DNA of 32,000 nucleotides, from positions 2,927,273-2,959,272 of the forward strand of contig NZ_JABRVS010000001.1 of assembly GCF_013248905.1 (NCBI RefSeq), in the 5' to 3' direction. Positions 4,801 through 23,374 of the stretch are shown one piece after another. The translations under genes were made by a program, and so were the position numbers. The notes beneath the pieces are model-generated. The model saw only the letters and a program-made list of their open reading frames with translations, searched no databases and was not told where the DNA came from. Within the stretch, counting starts at the first letter, position 1; every line of letters starts with the position of its first letter. The DNA comes from Shewanella sp. VB17 (GTDB taxonomy: Bacteria; Pseudomonadota; Gammaproteobacteria; Enterobacterales; Shewanellaceae).

Positions 4801-7800
4801 TTACGCAATTAATTCAACTTCTTTGCCATTAGTGTCCTTATTTAATTGCGCTGGAACACGAGGTTTACTGCCGATGAGCTTCTTTATATCTTCAATTGCT
4901 AAGTATAAACAAGGCATCAGTATTAAGGTGACCACGGTTGCAAACAGCACACCGAAGGCGAGGGAGGTCGCCATAGGGATCACCATTTTGGCTTGCATAC
5001 TGGTCTCTGTCATGATTGGCATTAAGCCGATGAAAGTGGTGAGTGATGTCAACATAATGGCTCTAAAGCGTCGACACCCCGCTTCAATCACTGCTGTTTT
5101 CATTACGATCCCCGCTTCCCTTGATTTGTTAATATGATCCACCATCACCAGAGAGTCATTGATGACGACTCCGGCTGCTGCGATGATGCCAAAGAGTGAC
5201 AATGCGCTGAGATCTATTCCCATGATCATATGACCCATAACAGAGCCTATAATACCAAATGGGATCACTGCCATGATCATCATAGGTTGAGAGTAAGATT
5301 TAAGCGGTATGGCCAACAAACTGTATATGATCAATAAGGAGATAATAAAGTCTCTTAATTGTGTCTTCGTGCTGTCAATTTGTTCTTGGATATTACCCGA
5401 CACTTCACTTTTTACTTTAGGATAGAGTGTTAATAATTGCGGTATAAAGTCATCGCGAATATCTTGAGCGAGTTTGAATGGCTCCGCTTGGGCGGCATCG
5501 ACAGAGGCCCAGACATTGATGGTGCGATTGCCATTTTCACGGCGAATATAACTGACTCCTTGTGTGACAGTGACATTGACGACGTCAGACAGAGGAACTT
5601 CAACGCCTTGGGGCGTGACTATCAATACATCAGAGACCTGAGCGATGGAGTTTCGTTGTGATTCTGGGTATCTGAGCATGACTTTTATTTCAGTCCCGTT
5701 ACGCAAAATTCTTTGTGCTTCAAGACCATAGAAGCTATTACTGACCTGAGAGGCAATATCAGCTAATGTAAGTCCTAAACCATAGGCTTGCGGTTTGAGT
5801 TGAAATTGTAATTCCTTCACACTAGATTGGCGGCTGTCGTTGATATCACTAACGCCTTTGAAGGTATTTAGCTTGTTTTTTAACGCGAGGGACGCAGCAA
5901 GTAATTGCGCTTCGTTCTTGCTTTCCAAGCGGAAGCTAATATCGCCATCATCACGCCCCCCGTCGAAGAGATTATCTTGAATTTCAAATGATTTTATTCC
6001 TGGGATCTGTGGTATAGCCTGACGCCAAAGTTCAGCTAATTGAAAAGTGTTCAGAGGTCTTATCTCTGGATCCACCAGTTTAGTCATGACTTTCGCTGAG
6101 GTGCGGCCTCCAAGTTCGACTTGCATGTCAGAGACCATGGCCTGATCATATTGCTCTTCAAGTTGTTTATCGACATCATAAATCGCTCTTTTGATCGCTA
6201 ATGCCGCCGTTAACGTGGCTTTTTCTGAGGCGTCGACATTCATCTCTATTTCGATTTGTGGGAAGTCATGGGGGATCTTGGGTTGACCGATAAAGCGAAC
6301 GAGACCACCTGCATAAAGGCCTGCACAGATAAGCATAAAACTGATAAAGACCATGATGGTGGTATAATGATATTTAACTGCTTTTTTGAGGGCAGGGCGA
6401 TAGACAGAGTTAATAAACAGGTGCAGAGTACGATCGACTCTATCTTGGATAGCATTGATAATATTTCTGAGCCAATCTAATGGGTTCTTTGAGCCTGGTT
6501 TGACGATGGTTTTTTGTTTCATTCTTGCTAAGTGGGCAGGCAAAATCAGCTTTGACTCTACCAATGAAAAAATAAGGCATAAAATAACGACAGTGCCTAT
6601 TGCTTTACCAAAAGCTGAGGTGGGTCCATCACTAAGGGTTAAAGGTGTAAAAGCGGCGATAGTGGTTAATACACCAAACGTGGCTGGTATAGCAACTTTC
6701 TTTACCCCGCGTATGACATTGTCTAAACTCTGACCATTTTTGTCACATTCATCATAGGCACTCTCTCCCATGACAATGGCGTCATCGACCACAATACCAA
6801 GGACCAATATAAAGGCAAACAGACTGATCACATTGACGGTGACATCTAACATGGGCATCGGCATCAATAGCAAGGCACCGAGGAAGCAAACTGGTAATCC
6901 CATCATGACCCAAAATGCTAATCGCACACGTAGGAAAAGTGCCAACATGATAAAGACTAAAATAGCCCCACTTTTCATGCTATCTAGCATGAGATCTAAC
7001 CGACCTTCGAGGTAATAGGACATATCTACCCAGGTTTCAAGTTTCAACCCTTCAGGTAAGATGTTCTGTTTTTTGGCAACGTACTTTTTCACGATATCAG
7101 CGACATCAGTCATGCTTTGATCGTTTGCAGCCCCGACAAAAAAAGTCACTGAGTTTTTGCCATTGAACTTAGAGTATTGAATGCCTTCCTCGAATCCATC
7201 AATGACAGTCGCAATATCTCCCAATAAGACATTGGTACCATCTTTTAAGGTAATTAACGGTAAATTTTCAAATTCATATCCGACATACGCTTGATTTTGG
7301 ACTCGCAAATTGATGTAACCCGTTTCTGCACGTATTTGTCCTGCAGACATGTTGCGTGAAAAGCCTTGTACCGCTTTAGCGACGTCGTTAAAATTCAGGC
7401 CAAATTCACGTAATTTATCTTTACTCACTTCAATGGCAATTTCATAATCCAGACCGCCATAGAAGTCTGTAATATTCACTGAAGGTAATTGCATCAACTC
7501 ATCGTGAATATTTTCGCCTAATTCTTTGAGCTGTCGGTGCGTTATATCACCATATAAGCTTATGTATAGCACTTCTTGTCGCAACTTAATACGCTCAACC
7601 TTAGGCAGCTCCATACCGTCTGGAAAGCTAGAAATGGAATCGATTTCAGATTTTATTTCATCCAGTACAACTTGTGGATCGTAGGAGTCTTCTATTCGAA
7701 AATACCCTGATGCTTGGCCTCGATTTGAATAAGTTATCACACGTTTAAGGCCTTGAACGCTTTCTAATGCTTCTTCAATTTTAATGGTGATCCCTTCTTC

Positions 7801-8034
7801 AACTTCTTGAGGAGCTGCACCAGGGTAGGAAGCATTAAATTCAATCCAGTTAATATCCACTTGTGGGAAAAACTGCTTTCGGATGGTATTTGCGGTTAGT
7901 AAGCCCCCTACAATGATAATGATCATTAATAAATTAGCGGCAACGCTATTACGAGCAAACCAAGCGATGATGCCGCTATTGACGTCGTCATGGGATAATG
8001 TTGATGATGAGTGGGGATTGATAGACTCAGACAT
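4801..8034 (-). CDS. RND efflux transporter permease (AcrB/AcrD/AcrF family)
   Basis: 1077 aa with a 12-TM RND layout and two large periplasmic loops. Typical motifs (VVDDAIVMGE, INDSLVMVD). Immediately downstream of an adaptor gene. Confidence 0.9.
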   Translation of the reverse strand: MSESINPHSSSTLSHDDVNSGIIAWFARNSVAANLLMIIIIVGGLLTANTIRKQFFPQVDINWIEFNASYPGAAPQEVEEGITIKIEEALESVQGLKRVITYSNRGQASGYFRIEDSYDPQVVLDEIKSEIDSISSFPDGMELPKVERIKLRQEVLYISLYGDITHRQLKELGENIHDELMQLPSVNITDFYGGLDYEIAIEVSKDKLREFGLNFNDVAKAVQGFSRNMSAGQIRAETGYINLRVQNQAYVGYEFENLPLITLKDGTNVLLGDIATVIDGFEEGIQYSKFNGKNSVTFFVGAANDQSMTDVADIVKKYVAKKQNILPEGLKLETWVDMSYYLEGRLDLMLDSMKSGAILVFIMLALFLRVRLAFWVMMGLPVCFLGALLLMPMPMLDVTVNVISLFAFILVLGIVVDDAIVMGESAYDECDKNGQSLDNVIRGVKKVAIPATFGVLTTIAAFTPLTLSDGPTSAFGKAIGTVVILCLIFSLVESKLILPAHLARMKQKTIVKPGSKNPLDWLRNIINAIQDRVDRTLHLFINSVYRPALKKAVKYHYTTIMVFISFMLICAGLYAGGLVRFIGQPKIPHDFPQIEIEMNVDASEKATLTAALAIKRAIYDVDKQLEEQYDQAMVSDMQVELGGRTSAKVMTKLVDPEIRPLNTFQLAELWRQAIPQIPGIKSFEIQDNLFDGGRDDGDISFRLESKNEAQLLAASLALKNKLNTFKGVSDINDSRQSSVKELQFQLKPQAYGLGLTLADIASQVSNSFYGLEAQRILRNGTEIKVMLRYPESQRNSIAQVSDVLIVTPQGVEVPLSDVVNVTVTQGVSYIRRENGNRTINVWASVDAAQAEPFKLAQDIRDDFIPQLLTLYPKVKSEVSGNIQEQIDSTKTQLRDFIISLLIIYSLLAIPLKSYSQPMMIMAVIPFGIIGSVMGHMIMGIDLSALSLFGIIAAAGVVINDSLVMVDHINKSREAGIVMKTAVIEAGCRRFRAIMLTSLTTFIGLMPIMTETSMQAKMVIPMATSLAFGVLFATVVTLILMPCLYLAIEDIKKLIGSKPRVPAQLNKDTNGKEVELIA

Positions 8035-9234: not shown

Positions 9235-9578
9235 ATCCTCTTACTTAAGTCTATGTTGTTTTTATTCAATAGCTTAAGTCTATTTATTTGTTTTTATTTA
9301 GTGAAAGTTCCTTTTATCATAGAGTATGTTAATTCAAACGCGCCAATGTTACACATCCATTATGTAAATATGTATGTCGTTTGCATGATAAGTAAGCATT
9401 AATATCGATGAGTGATAAAGATAAGTGAGGTGATTAATATCAGTGATAATAAATAACAGTTTATTCAGTGTGATTAGGCATGATTTAGGCTGAGGGCGGG
9501 GGATGATATCCAGTCATATCATGTTGAACTTTGCCACAAAAAAGAAGTGAAATTTGTGGGATTGTCAGTTAAGAGATA

Positions 9579-10634: not shown

Positions 10635-11073
10635 CTCATATCCCTCAGGTAAGTGTAAAAATAACTTCTAGTAGTAAAATTACCAAACTGACAACTACTG
10701 TCAAGCTATATCCGATATCTCGGTGTTTTTTTCGTGTTCATCATGATTATTACGCTTTTATGGTCATTTTTTTACATGAACTGTCTAGGGTCTGTTTATC
10801 TTTTATGGTTTTCATGCTGATATTTTATACAAGGTGAAACTTGTGTAGGTTAGTTATTCTACACCAACAAGTGACAAGGTACCGCGTTCATCCCGATGGC
10901 TTTATTGCAGTGTTGCGGGATTTTTACTGAACCGATTACGCTTCATCACCCGACGCCTTACATTAAATCCATTGATATTGAGCAAAATTCAAGCTCTAAA
11001 GATACACAGTCCCTAGTATGTTGTCACAACCCCGTTTTGGGCAGTTTTGTTCGTAGTCACAAAAGTGAGAGGC

Positions 11074-13895: not shown

Positions 13896-13971
13896 GCGAC
13901 ATTAGCTCAGTTGGTAGAGCGATACCTTGCCAAGGTATAGGTCATCGGTTCGAACCCGATATGTCGCTCCA
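13896..13971 (+). tRNA. glyW: tRNA-Gly (GCC)
   Basis: 76 nt with a cloverleaf. Anticodon loop CTTGCCAA, GGTTCGAACCC T-arm, encoded CCA. Close to the E. coli tRNA-Gly(GCC) sequence. Confidence 0.95.
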
Positions 13972-13987
13972 AATTAAACAATGAGTT

Positions 13988-14061
13988 GGCGCGATGGCAG
14001 AATGGCTATGCTGCGGATTGCAAATCCGTCCATCTCGGTTCGACTCCGGGTCGCGCCTCCA
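13988..14061 (+). tRNA. cysT: tRNA-Cys (GCA)
   Basis: 74 nt: GGCGCG...GGATTGCAAATCC...GGTTCGACTCCGG...CGCGCCTCCA. Matches the E. coli tRNA-Cys pattern. Confidence 0.95.
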
Positions 14062-14144
14062 TATTTAGATATTGATGAGTTTTCTCTCGTTAGAGAAAAC
14101 AGTATTAACTACCGATAATACGTATTGTCAATATCAACGAGTTT

Positions 14145-14230
14145 GCCCGAGTGGTGGAATCGGTAGACACAAGGGATTTAAAATCCCTCGCTGAATAAGC
14201 GTGCCGGTTCAAGTCCGGCCTCGGGTACCA
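14145..14230 (+). tRNA. leuZ: tRNA-Leu (TAA)
   Basis: 86 nt, class II with a long variable arm. GGGATTTAAAATCCC anticodon arm. Near-identical 5' half to E. coli leuZ. Confidence 0.95.
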
Positions 14231-18198: not shown

Positions 18199-18235
18199 AA
18201 TTAGAAACCAAAAAACTATTTTTTGGTTTCTAATT
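18199..18235. terminator. bidirectional terminator between convergent genes
   Basis: 17-bp perfect stem AATTAGAAACCAAAAAA / TTTTTTGGTTTCTAATT with a 3-nt loop. Confidence 0.7.
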
Positions 18236-20356: not shown

Positions 20357-21274
20357 TTAATTGATCACATACCAATGTTTACGAGGTATGAGCACCGGAT
20401 GTTTAATCGGTGTAGGCTCACGATATTGATAGTTCTTTAACGCATTAATAGTTACAGGTGTATTAAACAATATTATAGGCAATGTAGCATTAGTGCTTAA
20501 CATTCGTTTGCTGCGTGTATCACCAGTATTCTTACACCATATATCGATTAAAGGTTGAACTCGTGCAAATCTTATTTCAGTTATTTTTGCACTTGAAGAA
20601 ACTCGACTCATTAATTCTCTTTCTTTTTCGTAACGGGCTATGAGTTCTTCTTTATTTAAACCAAAGCATTCGAAGTTTTTTGCATTGATGCTGGATTTTA
20701 AAATATCAGCGGCAACATCATGTTTGACGTGATGTTGCATTTTTTTAGCGCGCCAATAAAAATTAACAGATGATATTTCATCGACGATTGTATCCATATA
20801 TTTCATTTTTCTGACGGCACTAAGAAGTACTAGATTAGGGATAAGTTCATGTAAGTTTTCATGGATGAGTTGTCGTTTCGCAAAACCCACTTTAATCGAA
20901 TCACTAAAAATGACTCGACGTTGGTTAACTTCATTGTTTAACTCGATGAATTCATCTTTCGATTTTTTAGGTAAAACAATTAATCCAGGAAAACGCTTTG
21001 CTAAATAGGTATTTTCATTGAATGCGTCAATTTTCAGTTGAGTTATTGCTTGCCGAGCATAACGCTTTGTCTGCTCGGTTATTTGCGTAAGCTCTTCCAT
21101 GACTTTAATATTGCTAGGAGTGGTATTTTCTTCACCTATTTTATTGGCGGGCAACGTGTACATACAAATATTAATCATATTGTCACAGACAAAAGTGGCT
21201 AGCTCAGAAAGGGCCTCTGCCAGTTGCAAGTGGTTGGTTTTTATATACGAATTCAGGGTAGCTCTATTGGTCAT
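20357..21274 (-). CDS. tus: DNA replication terminus site-binding protein Tus (divergent homologue)
   Basis: 305 aa vs 309 aa for E. coli Tus. Collinear blocks by eye: YTLPANK/FSLPEVK, KRFPGLIVL/VRLPGVLCY, HELIPNLVLLSAVRKM/HRHLPGLITLNAYRTL, EIRFARVQPLIDIWCK/KIKRPVKVQPIARVWYK, LPIILFN/PLIALIN, and C-terminus VLIPRKHWYVIN/LIIPRLHLYVAD. Confidence 0.85.
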   Translation of the reverse strand: MTNRATLNSYIKTNHLQLAEALSELATFVCDNMINICMYTLPANKIGEENTTPSNIKVMEELTQITEQTKRYARQAITQLKIDAFNENTYLAKRFPGLIVLPKKSKDEFIELNNEVNQRRVIFSDSIKVGFAKRQLIHENLHELIPNLVLLSAVRKMKYMDTIVDEISSVNFYWRAKKMQHHVKHDVAADILKSSINAKNFECFGLNKEELIARYEKERELMSRVSSSAKITEIRFARVQPLIDIWCKNTGDTRSKRMLSTNATLPIILFNTPVTINALKNYQYREPTPIKHPVLIPRKHWYVIN

Positions 21275-21303
21275 ATTAATTACGGCATACAGGCTAAAAA
21301 TTA

Positions 21304-21496: not shown

Positions 21497-21512
21497 TTTT
21501 TTATGGTGACAC
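21497..21512. repeat. left copy of the 16-nt repeat TTTTTTATGGTG[A/T]CAC
   Basis: TTTTTTATGGTGACAC. Identical to the right copy except one base. Contains GTGAC (a matS-type half-site). Confidence 0.6.
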
Positions 21513-21539: not shown

Positions 21540-21577
21540 TCTTTATGCAACATAATTAGAGTTATGTTGCATAAAGA
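21540..21577. other. dif/lox-like palindromic candidate recombination site (16-6-16)
   Basis: TCTTTATGCAACATAA TTAGAG TTATGTTGCATAAAGA. All 16 arm positions pair and the spacer is asymmetric. The inner 11-nt arm TTATGTTGCAT matches the E. coli dif XerD arm TTATGTTAAAT at 9/11. The site can also be parsed as a 13-8-13 lox-type site. It lies in the divergent tus / recombinase-operon intergenic region. Confidence 0.6.
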
Positions 21578-21602: not shown

Positions 21603-21618
21603 TTTTTTATGGTGTCAC
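21603..21618. repeat. right copy of the 16-nt repeat TTTTTTATGGTG[A/T]CAC
   Basis: TTTTTTATGGTGTCAC, 106 bp (about 10 helical turns) from the left copy. TGGTGTCACCA is itself an 11-bp palindrome containing GTCAC. Confidence 0.6.
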
Positions 21619-21666
21619 CATGATTGAGTGCTTGGCAAAATAATAGTATGAGATATAGGAATAGAA

Positions 21667-22215
21667 TTGTTAATAACACAAGAAAGAGTAGAACAAGATG
21701 ACAATTACACTCCGCCTAAATGGATTTATGATAACGGACGTACTGGGCGAGGTTATAACCTCAGAATGTTATCAATCACAGAGATAAAAATTTCTGCTGA
21801 TTTATTAAAAACATGGTTATCAAACATTAACATTTCAGATAATCCGTCATGGTATAAACCTTTTGCAAGTTCTACAGAATATCAATCCCATCAATCCTAT
21901 TTTTTACGTTTACTTAGAACGATTAAACAATGTGAAATTGAAGGTGAAGGTATATCAATACATGAAATGAACACCTTAAACCAAGAACTAAGCCGCATTT
22001 TTTCTGATGAGGGCTGGCGACACATGAAGCAAAAATTTAGTCAACAAGCAAAACGGAAGCGTAAAGCAAGACCAGAGATCTCGTCTTCACTACTTAGCAA
22101 GCTTCACCATGTTAAGACGACTCAAGGTTTTACTAGCCTTGATGAGGTCATTGATGAATTATTGTCTTTTTACCATGATAATCAAAATTCAAATGGTGCA
22201 TGTTGTGAAAAATAA
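21667..22215 (+). CDS. hypothetical DNA-binding protein with C-terminal ribbon-helix-helix (MatP-like linker/RHH)
   Basis: 182 aa. TTG start with AGGA 6 nt upstream. Basic patch AKRKRKAR followed by a beta-alpha-alpha pattern: PEISSS-LLSKLHHVKTTQG-FTSLDEVIDELLSFY. GWRHMKQ...KRKRK resembles MatP GWIDKHM..RMKQTIRARRKRH (E. coli sequence recalled from memory). Confidence 0.6.
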   Translation: MLITQERVEQDDNYTPPKWIYDNGRTGRGYNLRMLSITEIKISADLLKTWLSNINISDNPSWYKPFASSTEYQSHQSYFLRLLRTIKQCEIEGEGISIHEMNTLNQELSRIFSDEGWRHMKQKFSQQAKRKRKARPEISSSLLSKLHHVKTTQGFTSLDEVIDELLSFYHDNQNSNGACCEK

Positions 22216-23323
22216 TACTGAACTGACGCCATCTTATGGCGATTTACCGCAATCCATCGCACCAACATCAATTCAAGAATCACTGTTAGACACACGTAGT
22301 TTACTTGAAAAACGCCTCAAATCACAGTTGGCTTTATCCTCAGATCTGGTTGATCAAGATTTAGTACGATTACTCATTAAACATTTACTGGCAGACTTTG
22401 CGAAAAATGATAGCGGTTTATCAGATAACACCATTAAGACATTGTTTATCTATTGGCAAAGTTTTGAATTGTGGTGTCACAAACATCAATGTACTTCACT
22501 ACCAGCATCGGCGACCACATTTGTCGACTACATGAATGATAGAAAGTCAGCGGTAAAAATGAATACCTTAAGCCAATATCGCTGGGCCGTAAGTAAAATT
22601 CACTTAGCTGCCGGATTACCTTCACCCTGTCATACTCAAAAATCAATTGATGTAGTGGGCGGGATCAGAAAACAAAAAATCAGATCAAGCGAACTTGTCA
22701 CACAAGCAAGTCCATTTCGCAGTTCACACTGTGATGCGCTAATTGATTTGTGGATTGGATCTGGAACACCTTTGCAATATAGAAATTTAGCGATAATGGT
22801 AACGGCGTATGAAACGATGATGCGTGAAAGTGAGTTAGCACGAATTGAGTTAGCGCATATAAGTTATCAATCAGATGGTCGTGCGACTTTGCTTATTCCT
22901 TTCACAAAAACAAATATATCTGGTGATCCCGATACCGTCATGTTGAGTCGACAATGTGTTAAAATTATAAATAATTATTTGTCTCATACGGTGAATAAGT
23001 CTAATTTTCTATTTAAGAAAATGACACGAAATGGCAAGCCAGCACAACACAACGGTCCTATTTCTCGTTACACTGTCGACAGGGTTTTTAAACGTGCCTT
23101 TAATGATTTATGTACAAAAAATATAAATTTAACTCATGAAATAGCACCATGGTCTGGGCACAGTGCTCGAGTTGGAGCTTGTCAGGATCTATTAAGTGCT
23201 GGCTATTCTATTCTCGAAGTTCAGCAAGCGGGTCGCTGGGCATCAAGTGAAATGGTTTATCGTTATGGTAGAAATATATTAGCAAAAGAATCTGCAATGG
23301 CCAAAGCACGTTGGGGACGCTAA
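22109..23323 (+). CDS. Cre-family tyrosine site-specific recombinase
   Basis: WSGHSARVGACQDLLSAGYSILEVQQAGRWASSEMVYRYGRN vs P1 Cre WSGHSARVGAARDMARAGVSIPEIMQAGGWTNVNIVMNYIRN. RNLAIMVTAYETMMRESELARI vs Cre RNLAFLGIAYNTLLRIAEIARI. Catalytic R239 K267 H351 R354 W377 Y386 (maximal-ORF numbering). The true start is probably internal: ATG 22154 has GAGG 7 nt upstream, and ATG 22193 is the other candidate. Overlaps the upstream gene. Confidence 0.85.
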   Translation: MLRRLKVLLALMRSLMNYCLFTMIIKIQMVHVVKNNTELTPSYGDLPQSIAPTSIQESLLDTRSLLEKRLKSQLALSSDLVDQDLVRLLIKHLLADFAKNDSGLSDNTIKTLFIYWQSFELWCHKHQCTSLPASATTFVDYMNDRKSAVKMNTLSQYRWAVSKIHLAAGLPSPCHTQKSIDVVGGIRKQKIRSSELVTQASPFRSSHCDALIDLWIGSGTPLQYRNLAIMVTAYETMMRESELARIELAHISYQSDGRATLLIPFTKTNISGDPDTVMLSRQCVKIINNYLSHTVNKSNFLFKKMTRNGKPAQHNGPISRYTVDRVFKRAFNDLCTKNINLTHEIAPWSGHSARVGACQDLLSAGYSILEVQQAGRWASSEMVYRYGRNILAKESAMAKARWGR

Positions 23324-23328
23324 CAATA

Positions 23329-23365
23329 AATACAGATGCAGCATCGATCCTTTTGCATCTGTATT
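23329..23365. terminator. bidirectional terminator between the recombinase gene and fnr
   Basis: AATACAGATGCA / TGCATCTGTATT 12-bp stem with a 13-nt loop. Confidence 0.6.
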
Positions 23366-23374
23366 AACGGTTTA

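Follow-up and report, generated by a model that had tools for sequence, protein, structure and literature searches.

A Cre-type recombinase and its putative lox site beside tus in a block of apparent plasmid origin in Shewanella sp. VB17

Introduction

One recombination system of the Cre type is Cre/loxP of bacteriophage P1, which keeps the plasmid monomeric and in which a tyrosine recombinase acts at a 34-bp site composed of two inverted 13-bp arms around an 8-bp spacer (13-8-13). Here, we describe a predicted recombinase of this type, together with a putative lox-like target, in a 32,000-nucleotide stretch of the genome of Shewanella sp. VB17 (RefSeq assembly GCF_013248905.1, contig NZ_JABRVS010000001.1, positions 2,927,273 to 2,959,272 of the forward strand; hereafter ‘the window’), where both lie beside tus, a gene for a replication-terminus protein, and between the chromosomal genes uspE and fnr.

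The closest described systems come from marine gammaproteobacterial plasmids. SCre/SloxP from the megaplasmid of Shewanella sp. ANA-3 and VCre/VloxP from the Vibrio plasmid p0908 are likewise Cre-type systems with 13-8-13 targets; their activity has been demonstrated, enzymes of this kind recombine such sites without host factors and SCre by itself recombines SloxP in both human cells and E. coli (PMC3082901). Vika/vox-type systems, from plasmids of Vibrio coralliilyticus, share this site architecture (PMC3553980). Cre-type candidates are recognised in the field by their catalytic residue set and by a palindromic target that lies no more than ~1 kb from the gene (PMC10250229).

Two further kinds of system bear on this locus. 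Xer/dif systems, which resolve chromosome dimers and include the single-recombinase systems XerS/difSL and XerH/difH, likewise rely on tyrosine recombinases. The XerS and XerH genes sit beside their own sites near the terminus. Tus proteins act at Ter sites, and in E. coli TerB lies within the promoter of tus (PMC8707476). Genes for Tus other than those of Enterobacterales, Pseudoalteromonas chromosome 2 and Aeromonadales have been classed as ‘mobile’ and are often plasmid-borne (Galli et al., PMC6549158); plasmid copies are known on IncA/C, IncT and pAQU1 plasmids (PMC4036041).

Materials & Methods

Coordinates are those of the window unless a related locus is named; such loci carry L numbers and annotated protein matches H numbers. 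The recombinase was compared with all PDB sequences using phmmer and aligned pairwise to Cre using MAFFT; the Cre sequence used for the latter agrees with the PDB alignment. Eighty loci encoding relatives of the recombinase were retrieved and the 16 closest were scanned for 13-8-13 sites. Block boundaries were taken from homology to locus L089, as the uspE–fnr intergenic regions of L003 and L004 are too divergent to align. A promoter and terminator scan gave counts not above those of shuffled sequences and was used descriptively only.

Results

A recombinase of the Cre type

The gene at the centre of this study is as follows.

22205–23323, plus strand: Cre-type tyrosine recombinase gene, 372 amino acids from a GTG at 22205, with an alternative ATG at 22196

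In the initial annotation, the gene had been given as 22109–23323. That open reading frame exists on the plus strand as the maximal one (404 amino acids) but is longer than the gene itself: the NCBI protein for this locus (P0001) has 372 amino acids and is 100% identical, while homologues have 369–376, so that the true start is 22196 (ATG) or 22205 (GTG), giving a product of 372–375 amino acids. The start overlaps the stop codon (22215) of the preceding gene, orf182.

Among all PDB sequences, phmmer matched the recombinase to Cre and Cre-derived or engineered chains only (best E = 1.7e-36), with no Xer, lambda Int or Flp chain at E ≤ 1. Because query residues 92–399 align to Cre residues 25–337 in the best match, both Cre domains are covered, as had been judged by eye, and the sequence strings quoted in that judgement are present in the PDB alignment. 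The six residues put forward as catalytic—R239, K267, H351, R354, W377 and Y386, in maximal-ORF numbering—coincide exactly with Cre R173, K201, H289, R292, W315 and Y324 in the MAFFT alignment; in 17 homologues K267 is at least 90% conserved and the other five are invariant. Like P1 Cre, the window enzyme has both domains and the R-K-H-R-W-Y residues, and its gene is preceded by a 34-bp 13-8-13 site, although overall identity is only ~28–31%.

Pfam returned PF00589 alone (E = 1.3e-18), and scores against the NCBIfam Xer models fell far below their cut-offs (XerD 23 vs 329.6 bits, XerC 20.9 vs 335, XerA 33.6 vs 220). The enzyme also has tryptophan at the fifth catalytic position, where Xer proteins have histidine, and its site is 13-8-13 rather than 11-6-11. 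Its nearest characterised relatives, at 37–40% identity, are plasmid enzymes: SCre and VCre (37–39%) and the Vika type (H22–H24, of which H24 may be Vika itself; ~40% over 86% of the protein). The annotated best matches (H1–H12) lie on Shewanella plasmids, a distance tree nests the recombinase within a plasmid clade (L081, L089 and L001) and phage databases yielded P1-like matches only, at 29.7% identity. All of the sequence-level features that PMC10250229 asks of a candidate are present in the recombinase and its site. By sequence, then, the enzyme falls within the Cre-type group (Cre, Dre, VCre, SCre and Vika), and is neither of the Xer family nor a phage integrase with att-bounded cargo.

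A lox-like site whose arms vary with the recombinase

21542–21575, unstranded: lox-like core consisting of arm TTTATGCAACATA, 8-bp spacer ATTAGAGT and arm TATGTTGCATAAA, a perfect 13/13 inverted repeat

The palindrome at 21540–21577 that had been proposed as the target is real, its arms (21540–21555 and 21562–21577) being 100% complementary; the core within it lies ~630–660 bp 5′ of the recombinase start. The 32-kb window holds no second copy of the arm, and half-sites and degenerate copies do not occur in it beyond chance.

In nearly all of the homologous loci scanned (L002–L016, L085 and L088 included), a 13-8-13 inverted repeat likewise lies 5′ of the recombinase gene. The arms are identical to those of the window in L001 (69–71% recombinase identity), where the spacer alone differs (ATTAGCAT), and are related to them on a plasmid of S. 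aestuarii (L081; TTAATGCAACATA; 65%) and in L089 (ATGATGCAACATA; 68%); at ~40% recombinase identity they are unrelated, as in CTAACTTTGCATA and TAGATCACATATA. Spacer variants across the window and its relatives are ATTAGAGT, ATTAGCAT and ATTACAGT. The site in the Vibrio locus L011 is nearly identical to VloxP. Because 13-8-13 sites accompany the homologues and their arms co-vary with the protein, the case for the palindrome as the cognate target is strengthened, and 21542–21575 is very probably where the recombinase acts. The arm of SloxP is CTCGTGTCCGATA, as against TTTATGCAACATA here. A further suggestion in the initial annotation, that enzyme and palindrome form a new orthogonal pair, is plausible as a prediction, because the arm differs from those of loxP and SloxM1.

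Two other likenesses of the palindrome were considered. It shares TATGTTG with Ter sites, but a role as a Ter site was ruled out, because the corresponding sites have unrelated arms in Vibrio loci that lack tus. When a 6-bp spacer is assumed, 21543–21574 has the look of a symmetric dif site with two XerD arms, each formed by the inner 11 bases, TTATGTTGCAT, of a lox-like arm; nine of 11 positions equal those of TTATGTTAAAT, the XerD-binding arm of gammaproteobacterial dif. As the arms differ in other family members, this likeness is probably coincidental or a mark of shared core-site ancestry.

A partner gene and palindromes flanking the site

Three elements overlooked in the initial annotation, a partner gene and two accessory palindromes, surround the lox-like core.

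21667–22215, plus strand: orf182, conserved partner gene of 182 amino acids, in an operon with the recombinase gene

21503–21512, unstranded: left accessory motif ATGGTGACAC, a degenerate copy of TGGTGnCACCA, centred ~33 bp left of the core

21609–21621, unstranded: right accessory palindrome ATGGTGTCACCAT, centred ~40 bp right of the core and ~50 bp 5′ of the orf182 start

Homologues of orf182 lie directly 5′ of the recombinase gene in L001–L006, L014, L081, L085, L088 and L089; identity is 22–51% for the copies of Shewanella, Parashewanella and Cocleimonas, Motilimonas has a more remote homologue, and the family is also present on S. xiamenensis plasmids. The gene upstream of SCre on the ANA-3 plasmid belongs to the same family (hhalign 99.1%, E = 1.2e-18), and a GTGGTGTCAC motif occurs near SloxP. 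In the Vibrio loci examined, no orf182 homologue is adjacent and the site lies 50–350 bp from the recombinase gene. We know of no accessory palindromes or partner protein for loxP. A search of 1.84 billion proteins yielded 34 representatives at E ≤ 1e-3, which makes this a rare family, and orf182 has no match in Pfam, NCBIfam or PHROG. An AlphaFold (AF2) model of moderate confidence is mostly helical, with a predicted local distance difference test score (pLDDT) of 72.7; its structural matches to TCP domains are non-significant. We regard the product as a probable DNA-binding accessory protein or regulator.

The right palindrome is the sole exact GGTGWCACC in the window. In related loci, copies recur at set distances from the start of the lox site:

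L001 and L089: left at −38/−37, right at +68/+69 (9242–9252 and 9349–9357 in L001; 9301–9311 and 9407–9417 in L089)

L081: no exact left copy; right at +68

L002, L005 and L085: left at −44 to −46, right at +61

L006: no exact left copy; right at +61

Outside these offsets, the TGGTGnCACCA motif is absent from those loci. The palindromes probably bind an accessory protein, which may be the orf182 product; TGGTGTCACCA is a possible recognition sequence for that product.

A plasmid-type tus gene with a Ter-like site

20357–21274, minus strand: plasmid-type (‘mobile’) tus gene of 305 amino acids, at the left end of the imported block

21275–21295, minus strand: Ter-like site abutting the tus start codon, with core GTATGCCGTAAT at 21279–21290

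The encoded Tus matches the Pfam Ter family PF05472 over 287 of 296 profile positions (E = 2.2e-22) and scores 55.6 bits against a cut-off of 323 for the NCBIfam Tus equivalogs. Its annotated best matches are Tus proteins of Shewanella plasmids (33–53% identity); it is 60% identical to the L001 Tus, whose gene adjoins traG, and 25% identical to Tus of enterobacterial plasmids. The window gene agrees with those that Galli et al. class as ‘mobile’ tus (PMC6549158).

The sequence 5′ of the window tus reads …CCTGTATGCCGTAATTAAT-ATG. A motif of the AGTATGCCGTAAC type abuts the start of every plasmid-type tus examined, in six loci: the window, L001 (~7224–7245), L005 (~7795–7815), L082 (~5975–6000), L086 and L087 (in both just before 5001). 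In five plasmid tus loci it takes the form (A/T)CAGTATG(C/A)(C/G)GT(A/G)A(C/T); with the window included, it reads (C/T)AGTATG(C/A)(C/G)GT(A/G)A(C/T). The arrangement of a Ter-domain protein with a Ter-like sequence abutting its start codon recalls E. coli Tus/TerB; the central TT of the E. coli Ter core is replaced by CC in the window. The motif resembles AGTATGTTGTAAC, the E. coli TerB core, and may represent the Ter consensus of a divergent Tus clade. Further Ter-like sites in the window occur at chance level, and one at 11016 was dismissed because its orientation is wrong for a fork trap.

The S. aestuarii plasmid pPN3F2_1 (L081/L082, 117–131 kb and 168–176 kb) carries two modules of traG, small genes and tus in opposite orientation, ~45 kb apart, one of which adjoins lox, the orf182 homologue and the recombinase gene while the other does not. 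These two opposed Tus/Ter units could act as a plasmid fork trap.

A block inserted between uspE and fnr

The segment 20357–23323 (~3 kb) comprises tus, the Ter-like site, the lox-like site, orf182 and the recombinase gene. The nearest relatives share an order that runs traF-traH-traG, three small genes, tus, lox, the orf182 homologue, the recombinase gene and usually a DUF2913 gene. In L089, a metagenomic scaffold, tus lies directly beside lox, as in the window; L001, L005 and pPN3F2_1 have one to three additional genes between them. On the SCre plasmid of ANA-3, typed as MOBH/MPF_F, SloxP lies ~3.6 kb from the operon, whereas the window site adjoins its operon, is a chromosomal copy and stands directly beside tus.

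Nucleotide homology between the window and L089 runs from the tus stop codon (20357) to 23307–23314, within 16 bp of the recombinase stop codon. In Shewanella sp. OPT22 and in Parashewanella (L003 and L004), uspE and fnr are adjacent, ~140 bp apart. GC content is 0.34–0.35 over ~20.0–22.5 kb, compared with ~0.40 nearby. The block junctions are identical in an independently made Logan assembly of this strain, and the tus, orf182 and recombinase reading frames are full length relative to their homologues. The gene content of the block is limited to these three genes, with no phage or integrative and conjugative element genes, and Rfam returned no matches in it. Taken together, the L089 homology, the adjacency of uspE and fnr elsewhere, the GC content, the recombinase tree and the tra gene order in relatives identify the block as part of a conjugative-plasmid backbone that has entered the chromosome between uspE and fnr; as predicted from sequence, it holds a complete Tus/Ter unit, with a putative Ter, and a complete recombinase/site unit.

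This origin alters how the setting is read. The initial annotation had distinguished the recombinase from other Cre relatives by its housekeeping chromosomal context beside tus, a distinction that is not supported, as tus is itself part of the imported block and is tra-linked on plasmids in relatives. The possibility raised there, that the gene travels with prophage genes in other genomes, is borne out as regards linkage to mobile elements but not as regards their kind, which are conjugative plasmids. At the right junction lies one further feature, a probable bidirectional terminator:

23322–23372, unstranded: inverted repeat between the stop codons of the recombinase gene and fnr, with 19-nt arms, 84% complementary and 13 nt apart

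One related locus stands apart in its host: L005, a 120-kb contig of a Cocleimonas metagenome-assembled genome, has the traG-tus-lox-orf-cre-DUF2913 order of the Shewanella plasmids and a recombinase near that of S. algicola (L002), which suggests either that the plasmid has a broad host range or that a plasmid contig was binned wrongly.

A second lineage and other features

A second, independent chromosomal lineage of lox, orf and recombinase gene, whose recombinase is 40% identical to the window protein, occurs in four Parashewanella-like genomes between hrpA and cvfB-speA-speD-speB-pdxH:

L003: 9277–11056

L004

L014: 9168–11077

L088: 9282–11149

The lineage sits 6–10 kb from ttcA-uspE-fnr, at 6–8 kb in L003 and L004, whose contigs are long enough to include both.

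Elsewhere in the window, 13896–14230 holds a cluster of tRNA-Gly(GCC), tRNA-Cys(GCA) and tRNA-Leu(TAA) with no relation to the recombinase block. Between the convergent DUF2987 gene and ttcA, at 18199–18235, two perfectly matching 17-bp arms enclose a 3-nt loop; this inverted repeat coincides with the skew change point described below and is probably a bidirectional terminator. Some 2.3–3.6 kb past the right end of the window, beyond ccoN and a response-regulator gene, a 430-amino-acid PF00589 integrase of the same strain (L092, 67–1359) stands at the end of a Logan contig, and may mark a separate mobile element at which the short-read assembly breaks.

Discussion

The explanation that we favour, and consider probable, is that the block derives from a plasmid, that its enzyme performs Cre-like recombination at the 34-bp site, that this reaction served multimer resolution in the parent plasmid and that orf182 and the palindromes modulate it. 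Two recombinase monomers would occupy the two 13-bp arms of a site, two lox-like sites would synapse as a tetramer and Y386 would carry out strand cleavage and exchange over the 8-bp spacer, a reaction that would need no high-energy cofactor. On the model of Cre/loxP in P1, the native role on the plasmid would most likely be that of a multimer resolution module beside a Tus/Ter termination unit. The orf182 protein and the two TGGTGnCACCA palindromes would most likely regulate the operon, bias the reaction or both; as the related SCre works alone, their part is probably regulatory or architectural rather than catalytic. For any function that the block may have in its present setting, possible substrates would be the two copies of the site on sister chromosomes or within a chromosome dimer, or else a plasmid that arrives with an identical copy.

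Several points weigh against this explanation. Multimer resolution on the parent plasmids of SCre, VCre and Vika is itself drawn from the P1 analogy, and a resolution system with a single chromosomal site may stand idle, barring the formation of dimers or the presence of a matching plasmid. Neither convincing flanking repeats nor a second lox site was found to bound the block, which sits between two stop codons. The orf182 model has no significant fold match among PDB structures and hence no recognisable fold, although its C-terminus, with a basic stretch, a short strand-like segment and two helices, may be ribbon-helix-helix-like, to judge from its sequence pattern.

The position of the block raises the question of whether it has been domesticated at the chromosome terminus, with the Tus/Ter and Cre/lox pair captured from a plasmid and co-opted in the termination zone. 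The lox site would then be an FtsK-independent, dif-like site, a substitute or backup for dif/Xer; the Ter-like site would arrest leftward forks as a one-sided barrier; and orf182 and the palindromes would bias the reaction toward resolution of chromosome dimers. Cumulative GC skew does reach its maximum at 18–23 kb. GC skew at third codon positions, read on the plus strand, is positive (+0.01 to +0.37) for all genes on either strand from −9.5 kb (L091) to 18.2 kb, and is about zero to the right of ~18.2 kb. By analogy with TerB, the Ter-like site would be oriented against leftward forks, which fits rightward replication of the region on the left. In S. oneidensis MR-1, etrA/fnr lies close to the midpoint of the chromosome, and Leslie and Sherratt are reported to have shown in 1995 that Cre/loxP, inserted in the dif zone of E. 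coli, can take the place of dif. An ectopic non-permissive TerB placed well away from the terminus makes E. coli unviable (PMC8707476), so an active Tus/Ter would be tolerated only in a terminus position, and the second chromosomal lineage near ttcA-uspE-fnr in Parashewanella-like genomes would, on this account, reflect repeated selection for position. Against it, skew right of 18 kb stays near zero, rather than reversing, for at least 17 kb (to 35.6 kb, L092), the block was found at the uspE/fnr position in one genome only and the nearest relatives of its recombinase are plasmid-borne. No dif-like site was found from −9.6 kb to +3.6 kb beyond the window, nor any match to E. coli or V. cholerae dif with six or fewer substitutions over 45 kb (window and extension contigs); a canonical Xer/dif system may lie elsewhere. 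We judge domestication of this kind unlikely.

Cre-type enzymes catalyse integration as well as excision, and the chromosomal site might instead serve to receive plasmids or circles with an identical site, in Hfr-like cointegrates or cassette capture, of which the block may be a remnant. A site with identical arms is indeed found among related plasmids, in L001. Around the Parashewanella-like module, genes vary between the conserved flanks hrpA and cvfB-speA, and its recombinase diverges faster (65–78% identity) than its neighbours (85–95%). Yet the window has one site, with no half-sites or degenerate second copy, the ends of the block are two stop codons rather than lox-derived junctions and the L001 and L089 sites differ from that of the window in the spacer (ATTAGCAT vs ATTAGAGT), a mismatch of the sort that normally blocks recombination by Cre-type enzymes (Slox2272 in PMC3082901; PMC11260471); a docking role is accordingly improbable in our estimation. 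That the block is an inert relic, a recent and neutral leftover of plasmid–chromosome recombination that is intact because it is young, would agree with its presence at this position in a single genome, its low GC content relative to its surroundings and the absence from it of flanking plasmid backbone genes (DUF2913 and the three small genes after tus). Three intact reading frames, a perfect core, both palindromes and the Ter-like site speak against this, and an active Tus/Ter or an unregulated recombinase would not be neutral; we hold an inert relic to be very unlikely.

On the favoured reading of a plasmid-derived resolution module, the locus adds a new Cre-family pair of plasmid origin rather than a new kind of system. 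Established pipelines match Cre homologues to palindromes in their vicinity, with ~50% of candidates validating (PMC10250229), so another recombinase/site pair is useful, not surprising. With an intact protein and a perfect 34-bp site whose arms are unlike those of loxP and SloxP, it is a candidate tool for genome engineering that could widen the orthogonal Cre-type set, and it comes with natural spacer variants (ATTAGAGT, ATTAGCAT and ATTACAGT). In contrast to SCre and VCre, with their demonstrated activity, the window enzyme is known here from its sequence.

Three aspects of the biology are apparently unreported. One is a Cre-type clade organised as a two-gene operon with a partner of unknown fold, in which lox is bracketed by palindromes and so resembles a regulated resolution site more than plain loxP. 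Another is the placing of lox next to Tus/Ter on marine conjugative elements and megaplasmids, a plasmid-scale counterpart of chromosomal Ter/dif; we did not find adjacency of Tus to a Cre/lox unit described in the literature. The last is that a Tus/Ter and Cre/lox pair can apparently move as one block into a chromosome, a transfer that bears on the proposal that chromosomal tus was domesticated from plasmids (PMC6549158).

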